Below, in pieces: positions 34,803 to 49,474 of a stretch of 64,000 nt of DNA. How positions within the stretch are numbered: the stretch's first letter is position 1; the number at the start of each line of letters is the position of its first letter. The position numbers and the translations under genes were made by a program. The notes under the pieces are model-generated. The model made no database searches. It was not told where the DNA came from and saw only the letters and a program-made list of their open reading frames with translations. The DNA comes from Gemmatimonadales bacterium (GTDB taxonomy: Bacteria; Gemmatimonadota; Gemmatimonadetes; Gemmatimonadales; GWC2-71-9), in NCBI GenBank assembly GCA_035699205.1, contig DASSBA010000222.1, forward strand, positions 33,988-97,987. The letters are read 5' to 3'.

Positions 34803-35185
34803 CAGCCGCACAGGTGATCGTGACCGTGCTCGGTCTCGCCGCCGTGGCCTGGGTGAACTGGTACTTCTTCCTCGCGGGCCGCGGCGCCGCCGCGGTGGCG
34901 GCGAGCGATGGGTCGGGTCCGCAGCGGGTGCGTGTCGAGGTGAAGGGCGGCTATTCGCCCGCGGTCGTGCGGGTTCAGGCCGACCGGCCGGTGCGGCTGG
35001 AATTCCATCGCGACGAGACCGGCAGCTGCACCGAGGAGGTCGTGCTGCCGGACTTCGGCATCCGCGCTTTTCTGCCGGCGCACCGCACTACGCCGGTCAG
35101 CTTCACGCCCGCGGAGGGTAGCTACGAATTCACCTGCGGGATGGGGATGGTGCGCGGGAAGATCATCGCGGAGAGGGCCCGGTGA
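34799..35185 (+). CDS. membrane-anchored cupredoxin-like domain protein
   Basis: ATG 34799 in an ATGA overlap. N-terminal TM helix, then a ~100 aa beta domain ending FTCGMGM, as seen in proteins encoded beside copA. Confidence 0.65.
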
Positions 35186-37437
35186 CCGACTCGTGCACCA
35201 TCCCCGTGACGGGCATGACCTGCGCCGCCTGCAGCGGGCGGGTCCAGCGGACGCTGGAGAAGACGCCGGGCGTGGCTGAGGCCAGCGTGAACCTGATGAC
35301 GGGGGCGGCCACCGTGGCCTACGATCCGGTCGTCACGACGCCCGAGCGGCTGGTGGACTCGATCCGCTCCACCGGCTACGGCGCCGAGCTGCCGCTCCCC
35401 GGGGAATCGGGCGAGGAGCTGCTGGACGCGCGTGATGCCGCGCGCGCCGAAGAAGTGCGGGAGCTCCGGCGCAAGTTCGCCGTCAGCGCCGCTTCGGCGG
35501 TCATCTCGATGCTGTTCGGCACGCTGCACCAGACCATGTCCTCGGGCGCCAGATATCTGCTGCTCGCGCTGACGCTCCCCGTGGTCGGGTGGGCCGGTCG
35601 CCACTTCTATACCCGGGCGTGGGCGGCGTTCCGTCACCACGGCGCCGACATGAACACGCTGATCGCGGTCGGCACGGGCGCCGCGTTCCTCTTCAGCGCG
35701 GCGGTCACGCTGTTCGACCGGTGGTTCATGGCACACGGCGTGGAGCCGCACGTCTACTACGAGGCGGTGATCTGGATCATCGCCCTGGTGCTGCTCGGGA
35801 ACCTGCTGGAAGCCCGCGCCAAGGGTCACACGTCCGGCGCCCTTCGCCGGCTGATCGGACTCCGTCCCGCCACCGCGCGGGTGCTGCGCCAGGGACGCGA
35901 GGAGGACGTCCCGCTCGCGGCGCTCCGCCCTGGCGACGAGGTGGTCGTCCGGCCGGGTGAGACGGTCCCCGCGGACGGCACCATCCTCGACGGCGCCAGC
36001 AACGTGGACGAATCGATGCTCACCGGCGAGCCGATTCCGGTTGCCAAGCGCGCGGGGGACCCGGTCATCGGTGCCACCCTCAACCGAAACGGCGCCTTCC
36101 GCTTCCGCGTGGAGCGGGTAGGGCGCGACACGGTGCTCTCGCGCATCATCCGCCTGGTGCAGCAGGCGCAGGGCACGCGCGCGCCCATCCAGCGGCTCGC
36201 CGACCGGATCTCGGCGGTGTTCGTGCCGGTCGTGCTCTCGATCGCCATCCTCACCTTCGTCGTCTGGTTCGACCTGGGCCCGGCCCCGGCCTACCTCCAC
36301 GCGCTCGTCTCGGCGGTGACGGTGCTGATCATCGCCTGCCCCTGCGCCATGGGGCTCGCGGTGCCGACGGCGGTCATGGTGTCGACCGGCCGCGGAGCCG
36401 AGCTGGGCGTGCTCATCAAGGGAGGTGAGGCGCTGGAGCGGAGCCAGGCGATCGACACCATCGTGTTCGACAAGACCGGCACGATCACCGAGGGCCGTCC
36501 CACGGTGCGGTCGGTGCAGCTCGCGCCCGATCCCGACGTCGCGGCGCTTTTCGATGACGAGCGGCTGCTGGCGCTGGCCGCCGCCGTCGAGCGCCTCAGC
36601 GAGCACCCGTTGGCCGAGGCCATCGTCGCCGAGGCCGAGCGGCGTGGCGCGGCTGTCCCGCGCGCCACCGGATTCGAGAGCCGGACCGGCCGCGGCGTCG
36701 TGGGACGGGTGGATGGGCGCGAAGTCGCGGTGGGGAACGCCGCGCTGCTTCGCGAGCTCGGTGTGGACCCGGCGCCGCTGGCCGGGCAGGCCGATGCGCT
36801 GGCGTCGCAGGGGCGCACGCCGATGCATGTGGCCGTCGCGGGCCGTCTGGCGGGACTCATCGCCGTCGCCGATCCGGTCAAGCCCGCCAGCCGCGCGGCC
36901 GTCGGCGAGCTCGGGCGCCTCGGGCTGGAGACGGTCATGCTGACGGGCGATAACCCGCGCACGGCCGCGAGCGTGGCCCGGGCGGTCGGTATCGGCCGCG
37001 TCGTGGCCGGAATCCCGCCCGAACGAAAGCTCGAGGAAATCCGGGCACTGCAGGCCGAGGGCAGGGTCGTGGCCATGGTGGGTGACGGCCTGAACGACGC
37101 CCCGGCGCTCGCGCAGGCGGACGTGGGGATCGCCATGGGCACCGGGACCGACGTGGCCATGGAAGCGGGGGCGATCACGCTCATGCGCGGCGACCCGCTC
37201 GGCGTCGTGACCGCGATCCGGCTTGCCCGGCGGACCATGCGGATCATCCGGCAGAACCTGTTCTGGGCCTTCGTGTACAACGTCATCGGGATCCCGATTG
37301 CCGCGGGCGTGCTCTACCCGGCGTTCGGCCTCCGGCTCACCCCGGCGATGGCGGCCGCCGCCATGGCCGTGAGCTCGGTGAGCGTCGTCTCCAACAGCCT
37401 GCGGCTCCGCCGCTTCACGCCGGAAGGACAGCCATGA
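35182..37437 (+). CDS. copA: copper-translocating P-type ATPase
   Basis: Contains [10 protein letters not shown] (HMA), the CPC motif ([10 protein letters not shown]), DKTGTIT, and GDGLNDAP. Confidence 0.95.
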
Positions 37438-37775
37438 GCGAGCCCGTCGTCTCCTGCGCCTGCGGCGCCCGTCCAGGCGACGGCACCCACGCCGTGGCCG
37501 TCGACCCCGAGATCAAGCACGCCGTCCTCACCCGGCTTCGCCGGATCGAGGGTCAGATGCGCGGCCTGCAGAAGATGGTGGATGAGGAGCGCTACTGCGC
37601 CGACGTGCTGGCGCAGGTGTCGTCGGTGCAGGAAGCGCTCCGCGGCGTGAGCCGCTCGCTGCTGCATAATCATCTGAAACACTGCGCCAGCGAGGCCATC
37701 CGGTCGGCGGACCCGGAGCGCTCGGAGGCGATGTACCAGGAGTTGCTGGAGCTGGTGTTTCGGGCGAGCAGATGA
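37434..37775 (+). CDS. csoR: CsoR/RcnR-family metal-sensing repressor
   Basis: ATGA overlap with copA. Contains [22 protein letters not shown], and HLKHC (Cys-His-Cys ligand pattern). Confidence 0.85.
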
Positions 37776-37776
37776 C

Positions 37777-38016
37777 GGAAGGGCAGAAAGGCGGAAGGAC
37801 GGAAAGGCGGAAGGACGGAAAGGCGGAAAGGCGGAAAGGCGGAAAGGTAGACAAGTAGACAGACAGAACGTCGCATGGTGCCGAGACGGTCATCCCGAGC
37901 GGAGCGAGGGATCTGGCCGGGCCGAGCTCGGACTCGGGAGAGTAGATCCCTCGCTCCGCTCGGGATGACAGACTGGCTCGGCACGTCCTTCCGCCTTTCC
38001 GTCTTTCCGCCCTTCC
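37777..38016. repeat. composite palindromic element (MITE/BIME-like)
   Basis: Left octamer/16-mer array GGAAAGGC(GGAAGGAC) at 37777-37848. Perfect 26-bp inverted repeat gtcatcccgagcggagcgagggatct (37889-37914 / 37944-37969) around a ccgagctcgg palindrome. Right inverted array gtccttccgcctttccgtctttccgcccttcc at 37985-38016. It fills the csoR/MFS convergent gap exactly. Confidence 0.8.
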
Positions 38017-39516
38017 CTATCTCTCCACCAGCTCCCGATGCATGTCCCTCCCCAGCGTCCGCATCGCCCCCAGCACGACGGCCCCCCCGATGATCACCAC
38101 TACCGGCAGCAGCAGGATGGCGCGGTCGAGCCCGAACCGGTCGCTCAGGCTGCCCACCAGCGGCAACGCGATCGCATCCCCGGCGAGGTGAATGAACAGC
38201 AGATAGGCGCCCGCCACCGTGGCGCTGATGCGCGGGGGCACGACGTCGAAGATCACGGCCGTCATCGGTCCGGTGTACCACGAGAGGCAGAAGAAGGCCA
38301 CCGCGAATACCGCCTGGAAGAGCGCGGGATCGCGGATGGTGAGAAGCCAGAGCGCCAGCGGCCCACCGAGCAGCAGCCCGAGCGCCACCACGATCACGCG
38401 CGCCGTTTCCCACCGCCGCCGGAGCCAGTCGGCGAGCACGCCGCCGAAGAGTGTGCCCGCGGTTCCCGAGATGAGCCCCCACTTGCCCAGCAGCCCCGCC
38501 GCTTCGGCGGAGCTCAGGTCGAGCTCGCGGGAGACGAACGTGGGCCCCCAGCCCACGATGCCGTTCAGGCCGAAGGAGATCATCGCCCCGGCGAGGAAGA
38601 CGTACACCAGCGTCGGCGTGTGCAGCACCGTGCGCCCCGCGCGGACGATTTCGTCGAACGCCCCGCTGATCCCGCTGCCGAACGAGGTATCCGCCGCCAC
38701 GTCCGCGGGCGTGCGCCGCACCCAGCGGAAGATCGTGAGCGCGAGCCCGAGTCCCAGGGCTCCGCTGAAGACCGCGAGATCCACGGTGGAACCGGCGCCG
38801 TACTGGCGGTCCAGCCAGTAGGCCGCCGTGCCGCCGAGGGCCATTGCCACGAGCAGCGGCCACAGGTTCCGCACCAGCGGCATGACGCCGATGCCGAAGT
38901 CGCGCAGGAACGACCGGACCGTGAGGCGCGCGGGGGTCCGCGTCGGGTCGATCAGCCGGGAGACGAGCACCGCGAGGATGAAGCCGGGTACGCCCACCGT
39001 CATGAACGCCACCCGCCATCCGTACACGCCCTCGAGGTGCCCGCCGAGCAGGAGTCCGAGCACGCCGCCGAGCGCGATGCCGGAGGAGAGGATCCCCATC
39101 GCCACCGCGCGGCCGCGGGCCGGGAAGTAGTCGGCCACGAGCGACGCCGCCGCGGGCCCGTAGGCTGCCTCGCCCACGCCGACAGCCGCGCGGCAGGTGA
39201 AGAGCTGCCCGAAGGAGTTCACGAGCCCGCTCAGGAACGTGAACGCGCTCCACACCGTCACCCCGCCCGCGATGACCGCGCGGCGCGAGCGCAGGTCGCT
39301 CAGCACGCCGAAGGGCAGCGCGGAGACCGAGAAAACGAAGATGTAGGCGGAACCCAGCCAGCCGAGCTGCGAGTCGGTCAGCGCGAGGTCGCGCTTGATC
39401 GGCTCGAACAGGGCGTAGATGACGTTCCGGTCGACGTAGTTGAGGAGGTTGATGAGGGCGAGCAGTCCGAGCGCATACCAGCTGTACGCCCGGCCAGGCG
39501 GTGCCGGTGGGGTCAC
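38017..39516 (-). CDS. MFS transporter
   Basis: 499 aa with about 12-14 TM helices. N-terminal [15 protein letters not shown] is typical of MFS. GTG start in a GTGA overlap with the upstream gene. Confidence 0.85.
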
Positions 39517-49335: not shown

Positions 49336-49355
49336 CTCGGCGCAGGGGCGGAGCC

Positions 49356-49380
49356 GTCATCCCGAAGAGAGGGAGGGATC
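49356..49380. repeat. half copy of the GTCATCCCGA...GGGATC REP-like unit
   Basis: gtcatcccgaagagagggagggatc in the convergent gap between plsC (stop at 49335) and the ABC permease (stop at 49475). The inverted partner is only degenerate (…ccatgac…). Confidence 0.5.
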
Positions 49381-49474
49381 CGGGCCGGCCATGACCCGGG
49401 CGCCGCAGGGAAGATCGCTCGTCCGCGTGGCCGTCGATCCGCCTGGCACCGGCCGCGCCCGCCTCACCCGCCCG

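Follow-up and report, generated by a model that had tools for sequence, protein, structure and literature searches.

A GTC-headed hairpin doublet between csoR and an MFS transporter gene belongs to a dispersed repeat family found beside GIY-YIG nuclease genes

Background

The closest described counterparts of the element reported here are the REPs and REPINs, which occur in extragenic DNA as singletons, dimers and clusters, form inverted doublets and carry an unpaired conserved head (Di Nocera et al. 2013, PMC3733652). A REP is an imperfect palindrome of 20-40 nt that forms a stem-loop, carries an unpaired GTAG or CGTC tetranucleotide and is associated with a RAYT gene (Y1/HUH) flanked by the same repeats; in a REPIN, two inverted REP units and a short spacer make one long hairpin. 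A second relevant group of structures is the DNA mini-hairpins of the type GCGNAGC. These have extraordinary stability and mark single-strand DNA recognition sites, including those of phage G4 priming and ssiA and, in the form GCGGAGC, of the N4 virion RNA polymerase promoters (Hirao review, PMC13037366).

We analysed a 64-kb stretch of DNA from a Gemmatimonadales bacterium ("the window"), in which a preliminary description had drawn attention to a palindromic repeat filling the gap between csoR and a convergent MFS transporter gene. That description missed three things that are central to the account below: the single hairpin arm as the unit of the repeat, its occurrence in many phyla and in phages, and its tie to GIY-YIG nuclease genes.

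Results

The stop codon of csoR lies at 37773-37775 and that of the MFS gene, on the minus strand, at 38017-38019 (sequence and open reading frames), and the 241 nt between them (37776-38016) are repeat throughout. The csoR product is a CsoR-family repressor (PF02583) whose gene is co-oriented with a copper P-type ATPase gene (copA). The MFS transporter gene on the other flank is convergent to csoR; its best homologues are 93% identical and are named Gemmatimonadales bacterium. Inspection of the sequence, repeat searches and TRF located every component of the composite that the preliminary description had listed.

On the csoR side, nine octamers, CGGAAAGG and the variants GGAAGGAC and GGAAGGGC, form a tandem array on the plus strand (37776-37847) that begins 1 nt past the csoR stop codon and, with 9.0 copies at period 8 and a TRF score of 102, is the top tandem array in the window. 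It is followed by an asymmetric 30-nt spacer (37848-37877, plus strand) that consists of two TAGACA units spaced 8 nt (37848-37863) and then GAACGTCGCATG. An outer stem extension, GTGCCGAG (37878-37885, plus strand), pairs with CTCGGCAC (37977-37984, plus strand) in the inverted-repeat search and in predicted folds. Inside it lie arm 1, the 26-mer GTCATCCCGAGCGGAGCGAGGGATCT (37889-37914, plus strand), and arm 2, the identical 26-mer on the minus strand (37944-37969), separated by a 29-nt loop (37915-37943) that contains the palindrome CCGAGCTCGG at 37922-37931. The arms form a perfect 26-nt inverted repeat, which the repeat search extends to 31 nt of pairing at 94%, with one GTC-head motif per strand and the heads pointing outward. 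On the MFS side, about four units of CGTCCTTC/CGCCTTTC make up a second array (37984-38016, plus strand; TRF score 52), whose last base is the base preceding the MFS stop codon.

The outer arrays had been likened to terminal inverted repeats. They are indeed inverse complements, the right array being 94% complementary to 37786-37817 over 32 nt, but the palindrome is unequal: nine units on the left stand against four on the right, and the left spacer has no mate on the right. One segment of this spacer, CATGCGACGTT on the reverse strand, recurs at two other loci (loci retrieved for comparison carry L numbers), as CATTCGACGTT in L222 and AATGCGACGCTT in L159, and is therefore part of the dispersed unit; the 29-nt loop is partly conserved with the same two loci.

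Chance is excluded as the source of these repeats. In shuffled sequence no match to the 25-mer core is expected, and the 16-mer array unit has 11 matches where 0.45 are expected. Folding calculations of the kind proposed in the preliminary description found the 241-nt stretch to be very stable, with -151.9 kcal/mol as RNA (z = -12 against shuffles) and -87.6 kcal/mol as DNA (z = -11.8).

The coding ends that flank the element also contain a perfect 10-nt inverted match, GGAGCTGGTG/CACCAGCTCC, at 37748-37757 and 38026-38035, so that the palindrome appears to extend into the two genes; the two proteins have ELV near their C-termini (CsoR ...ELVFRASR, MFS ...ELVER). This match may be due to chance, since a similar end, ...RELVGR, is found in the MFS protein of L121, a locus without csoR beside it. 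At its other end the MFS gene overlaps an upstream deoxyhypusine-synthase-like gene (PF01916) by 4 nt (39513-39516). The pairing of these two genes is kept in all relatives examined (L121-L128), which suggests that the transporter may be linked to a polyamine or homospermidine-type enzyme.

The functional unit of the family is the single 26-nt arm, whose own conserved fold has strong support from covariation. The motif is laid out as GTC-stem5-GA-stem2-GNA-stem2-GA-stem5-C, with the consensus GTC-ATYCY-GA-GC-GNA-GC-GA-RGRAT-C and the predicted fold ....(((((..((...))..)))))... over 26 nt. In arm 1 these parts are the unpaired GTC head, a 5-bp stem ATCCC/GGGAT, a tandem G.A/A.G mismatch, a GC/GC stem and a GGA triloop, the last two forming a GCGGAGC mini-hairpin. 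The GTC head is found in 385 of 392 arms and is followed by A, the first stem base. When two Y and two R positions were left free in the degenerate search pattern CATYCYGAGCGNAGCGARGRATC, 143 of 144 matches had Watson-Crick combinations, which are four out of the 16 possible. A set of 56 distinct arms was drawn from loci chosen by protein only, with a skeleton of ten fixed unpaired bases. In this set 92.6% of cells pair, and the 74 double-sided changes compare with 17.9 in shuffles (none of 500 as high); compensatory changes occur in six of the seven pairs, and slid controls score 5-16. In longer variants the outer stem and both GA dinucleotides are retained, and the inner stem is swapped for other complementary sequence. 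By nearest-neighbour DNA energy a single arm does no better than its shuffles (z = -0.1), and the fold therefore rests on covariation together with the published stability of GCGNAGC.

Only one strand shows the conserved tandem G.A pairs and GNA loop, and its complement would have C.T mismatches. This leads us to infer single-stranded DNA or RNA of GTC polarity as the working form; in an inverted doublet each strand bears one such hairpin.

The preliminary description proposed a search for further copies. The window holds no second intact copy of the element, and its copy density is low, with one intact and one decayed doublet in 64 kb. The decayed doublet (49356-49440, plus strand; detector match and alignment to the main element) has the left arm GTCATCCCGAAGAGAGGGAGGGATCC and a degraded right arm (AGATCGCTCGTCCGCG...) and lies, in the region 49336-49463, between another convergent ORF pair. 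Beyond the window, the exact 26-mer GTCATCCCGAGCGGAGCGAGGGATCT was found in at least 116 stretches of one-genome-per-species contigs. Among the matches listed, its hosts are Gemmatimonadota, Acidobacteriota, Verrucomicrobiota, Chloroflexota, Alpha- and Gammaproteobacteria, Desulfobacterota, Binatia and one CPR genome, and it occurs on several contigs per MAG, up to seven in one MAG among the matches listed. The degenerate motif CATYCYGAGCGNAGCGARGRATC was found in at least 120 stretches of IMG/VR phage contigs, where fewer than one would be expected. Few stem and loop positions vary, and a 26-mer shared between phyla therefore does not by itself point to recent transfer. A blastn search with the hairpin gave no plasmid match in PLSDB. 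The motif sequence was not found in the literature searched, and RepRanger (PMC12306157) does not mention it.

It is not only the arm that is dispersed. The whole composite, comprising the octamers, the spacer segment CATKCGACG, the doublet and part of the loop, has homologues in L222 and L159, which come from two other Gemmatimonadales MAGs and have unrelated flanking genes; arrays of the CGGAAAGG type flank the element in both. Related composites in L158 and L213 lie between divergent gene starts (start codons assigned by inspection). The abundance of copies, the presence of the composite at unrelated loci and the variability of the junction described below all bear out the earlier characterization of the element as a non-coding, dispersed mosaic resembling a MITE or BIME.

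Some phage contigs in IMG/VR (L089, L030, L102 and L016) carry three to six motif copies each in separate intergenic gaps. The motif in these contigs is sometimes placed just 5' of a ribosome-binding site, and L102 has tandem triplets; a GIY-YIG gene of the UPF0213-type family was not found in these four contigs. In three other IMG/VR contigs (L019, L021 and L082) a distinct but related hairpin head, GTCATTGCGAGC...CTTCGC, adjoins a GTCATTCTGAGCG motif, which suggests that there may be a wider superfamily of GTCA-headed hairpins.

Orthologous csoR/MFS junctions were retrieved through MFS homologues that are 88-93% identical, and they display six states. The two genes overlap by 4 nt in L126-L128. 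They are separated in L336 by 7 nt and in L125 by the 13 nt ACGGAAAGACGCG, both gaps being free of any hairpin; the 10-nt core of the latter, CGGAAAGACG, is also present in the MFS-proximal array of the window. In L337 the junction is 103 nt long and consists of inverted GACGGAAC-type arrays without the hairpin, in L335 it is 167 nt long and consists of eight tandem CGTCATCC units followed by a collapsed arm, and the window has the complete 241-nt element. Comparison of these junctions had also been proposed in advance, and the spacer proves to be empty or differently filled in relatives, so that the element is not identical at all junctions. Neither outcome that had been named as refuting the earlier reading, a lack of other copies or an identical element in all relatives, is therefore observed. 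The element is not fixed at this position, and it shows insertion and decay polymorphism among relatives. Because close relatives with the same genes have a missing or decayed element, it is dispensable here. Both proteins keep normal C-termini, so the element is confined to the spacer between the stop codons.

In L335 (4503-4671) the eight copies of CGTCATCC correspond to the motif head and run straight into the collapsed arm GTCATCCCTCGCTGCGCTCGGGATTGACA, which shows that the motif itself can supply the units of the flanking octamer arrays. In the alignment with L337, the missing segment is exactly the one bounded in the window by the 5-nt direct repeat CTGTC, a pattern that fits a loss of the hairpin by slippage.

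The neighbouring copA-csoR module (35182-37775 in the window) is itself variable: L121-L124 have no cop genes, in contrast to L125-L128 and L335-L337. The genome of the closest MFS homologue lacks the module, and a GAF-domain gene follows in its place. A cupredoxin gene (PF13473) adjoins copA in L126-L128 and L336, and none was called in L125 and L337.

Tandem arrays are a recurrent companion of the hairpins. Within 120 nt of motif clusters they are 7.5-fold denser than elsewhere in the same loci (1.39 versus 0.185 per kb). A single array accompanies a quarter of the clusters, and a tenth are flanked by arrays on either side. Most periods fall at 7-9 nt, with a range up to about 30. Of 20 cases with arrays on both sides, 11 have units that are inverse complements and none has direct repeats; the other nine are mostly ambiguous, as TRF gave different periods for the two sides. 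The units vary by copy (CGGAAAGG, GGCGGACA, GGTCAGTG, GCAGAGA, TCAGCCA and others), and some derive from the motif head (L335, L216 and L209), which makes a sequence-specific binding role for the arrays unlikely. An origin of the arrays in a fixed 8-bp target duplication was considered and rejected, given periods of 7, 8, 9, 16-21 and more. The best reading of the arrays is that they are a recurrent by-product that extends the palindrome. Replication slippage or break repair beside a very stable hairpin would give rise to arrays of 7-9 nt, and intrastrand templating would copy them to the opposite side, so that the palindrome could grow outward while its sides stay symmetric.

Between motif pairs we found ORFs of about 100 aa with a GIY-YIG domain (PF01541, E about 1e-14). 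Two directly repeated doublets flank the GIY-YIG gene in L185, in L218 and in the P0134 locus, which adjoins recA. In L196 the gene lies within the loop of one doublet, in the order arm(+)-gene-arm(-), with complementary bases adjoining the arms. The association was tested on 80 metagenome loci (191 kb) that had been fetched by the UPF0213-type GIY-YIG protein alone. Within 350 nt of the gene, the motif occurs upstream in 66 of the 80 loci and downstream in 56, with 49 loci having it at both ends, and the remainder of the 191 kb has 17 matches only; on shuffled window sequence the detector gives about 1.8 false positives per 64 kb. The commonest layouts are a plus arm before and a minus arm after the gene (+, gene, -; ten loci) and a doublet on either side (+-, gene, +-). 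Two distant representatives of the protein family have hairpin variants of their own, which match on both sides of the gene.

The GIY-YIG family comprises 5,617 cluster representatives at E <= 1e-10. Its profile matches two solved UPF0213 proteins, 1ZG2 (BH0048; E = 1.7e-7) and 1YWL (EF2693; E = 9.4e-5), both of which are deposited in the PDB only as "Hypothetical UPF0213 protein". There is no GIY-YIG gene in the 64-kb window, and the named homologues belong to Acidobacteriota (Sulfotelmatobacter) and Dormibacteraeota, with no Gemmatimonadales among them. A GIY-YIG-like ORF in the Gemmatimonadales locus L129 was left out of the count, because it encodes a different and longer protein and lies 1 kb away from the motif. 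The literature searched contained no link of GIY-YIG or UPF0213 proteins to REP-like or hairpin repeats, and the association appears to be undescribed in that we could not find a description of it.

Discussion

We consider it probable that the csoR/MFS element is a non-autonomous, REPIN-like inverted doublet of a GIY-YIG-associated hairpin family; it may have been mobilised by the nuclease. The full-length relatives would be those that carry a UPF0213-type GIY-YIG gene, either in the loop of one doublet or flanked by two. The nuclease would recognise or nick the extruded hairpin, and hairpins would thereby be copied to new intergenic sites; doublets without a gene, such as the csoR/MFS copy, would spread or persist in trans, and this lineage would carry the gene. 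The element would have landed in the few bases between the convergent stop codons and left both proteins intact, and any effect on the host, such as a block to read-through or to 3' decay of the transcripts on either side (copA-csoR and MFS), would be secondary. The partner suggested by the data is a GIY-YIG nuclease and not a transposase with TIR/TSD behaviour.

A broader proposition can be put forward only tentatively, and we regard it as somewhat doubtful as a whole. The GTC hairpin and the UPF0213-type GIY-YIG nuclease of about 100 aa might together constitute an undescribed class of prokaryotic mobile element, a counterpart of RAYT/REPIN, in which a nuclease without a DNA-binding domain recognises a folded ssDNA hairpin and spreads both itself and gene-less doublets across phyla and phages, with the arrays as a by-product.

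The association might also be reversed. The hairpins could be structured sites useful to the host (stabilisers of RNA 3' ends, terminators, or ssDNA sites for replication or repair proteins) that are maintained by selection, with the nuclease genes as selfish, parasitic homing genes that target hairpins already present and settle within or next to them. The gene inside the doublet loop of L196 is what a homing insertion would produce, the fold is conserved across phyla with compensatory changes, intergenic genome copies are more often convergent than divergent (62 versus 18, with crude gene calls), and either transcript would carry at its 3' end a very stable hairpin made by the full element. 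Against this, the element is absent or decayed at the junction in close relatives that have the same genes, and composites also lie between divergent gene starts. Solo motifs show no orientation bias, with sense:antisense ratios of 24:31 in phage contigs and 10:15 in genomes, in a weak test that used crude longest-ORF calls and placed many motifs "inside" spurious ORFs. The matching hairpin variants on the two sides of each nuclease gene fit co-evolving partners better than a universal site of the host, and we judge a host-site origin to be unlikely.

Mobilisation by a RAYT, as in a classical REP or BIME-type element, is more improbable still. In its size (26 nt), imperfect palindromy and unpaired conserved head the arm agrees with a REP, and the two inverted arms with their 29-nt spacer form one long hairpin as in a REPIN; inverted doublets and clusters in extragenic DNA have likewise been described for REPs and REPINs (PMC3733652). 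The head, however, is GTC(A) and not GTAG or CGTC, and the genes bracketed by the motif encode GIY-YIG proteins. Clustering of ORFs from 236 motif loci returned phage structural and common housekeeping families only, with no recurrent transposase. As a control, tblastn with E. coli RayT over the 2.4 Mb of fetched loci gave one clear match, a RAYT-like Y1 gene in the IMG/VR contig L050 (1200-1800), which is flanked on both sides by a different, GTAG-tagged REP (GTAGCGCAGGCTTCAGCCTGTGG...CCACAGGCTGAAGCCTGCGCCAC). The same contig bears the GTC-headed motif elsewhere, so that two repeat systems occur there side by side.

A bidirectional terminator was one of the possibilities raised in the preliminary description. 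The exact fill between the stop codons and the extremely stable fold would suit a terminator or insulator that evolved locally to act in both directions on the convergent transcripts of copA-csoR and MFS, but such an origin is hardly credible: no T/U tract follows either side, no terminator-like site was predicted in 37300-38500, the hairpin is lacking where the two genes overlap or are 7-13 nt apart (L125-L128 and L336), the junctions of L335 and L337 differ, related composites are also found by inspection between divergent starts, and the composite occurs at unrelated loci and the arm in many phyla.

Thus the element fails the defining tests of a classical REP (tag and RAYT), of an intrinsic terminator (T-run and conservation) and also of a MITE, for the borders ...AGATGAC/GGAAGGGC and GCCCTTCC/CTATCTC contain no direct repeat that could be a target-site duplication. 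Rfam gave no match at the gathering score in the whole window, and locally only generic miRNA-hairpin models scored, far below that value.

If the link to the nuclease holds, it would provide a role for a very large orphan protein family whose solved homologues have been called hypothetical, and a second, mechanistically different nuclease partner for genome colonisation in the REP/REPIN style. It would also account for a sequence that contaminates gene predictions from soil and sediment metagenomes, its arms being translated into spurious peptides such as ...SSRAERGI... and ...RSLAPLGMT.... The conserved fold, with its tandem G.A pairs, its GNA triloop on GCGNAGC and its strand-specific GTC head, is a directly testable biochemical substrate. 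For the window itself the consequence would be modest: the csoR/MFS spacer would be selfish or neutral DNA and not a designed regulatory site.

The comparison with known systems can be drawn part by part. The core of the arm is shared with the d(GCGNAGC) mini-hairpins, being GCGGAGC here and GCGAAGC, GCGCAGC or GCGTAGC in other family members; the difference is that it is embedded in a larger fold (tandem G.A, 5-bp stem and GTC head) and is a dispersed repeat. The motif-bracketed genes resemble those of the stand-alone UPF0213 GIY-YIG proteins 1ZG2 and 1YWL in that they match PF01541 and, as a profile, both solved proteins, although the setting in this window, which is without such a gene, differs. 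As in enterobacterial BIMEs, which combine REPs with other motifs, inverted palindromic units with extra repeats lie 3' of genes; the extra motifs here are tandem arrays of 7-9 nt that are inverse complements and differ from copy to copy.

Like MITEs, the element is short and non-coding, has inverted ends and is polymorphic for presence and absence, and it resembles the gene-less form of a gene-bearing relative (arm-gene-arm, L196). Unlike MITEs, which are internal-deletion derivatives of IS elements, it has neither a target-site duplication nor a DDE transposase, and its ends are individually folded hairpins rather than simple TIRs. Foldback (FB) transposons of Drosophila have long inverted termini made of tandem short sub-repeats, which form a large fold-back structure. 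The inverted tandem sub-repeats of the present element are similar by architectural analogy only, since FB elements are eukaryotic, have far longer arms and lack a conserved mini-hairpin core.

The nearest parallel is with the REP/REPIN-RAYT system (Bertels and Rainey 2011, PMC3116915; PMC3733652). Both consist of short imperfect palindromes with an unpaired head that form inverted doublets, both occur in extragenic DNA as singletons, dimers and clusters that are often tandemly reiterated with flanking DNA, and both include a REPtron-like layout, in which a single-copy nuclease-type gene is bracketed by the repeats. They differ in the head, which is GTC(A) here in place of GTAG or CGTC, and in copy density, which in this window is lower than that of classical REPs. 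They differ further in the bracketed gene, a GIY-YIG nuclease of about 100 aa in place of a Y1/HUH transposase, and in range, as REPs are lineage-specific and the present family is represented by one kind of arm across many phyla and phage contigs.
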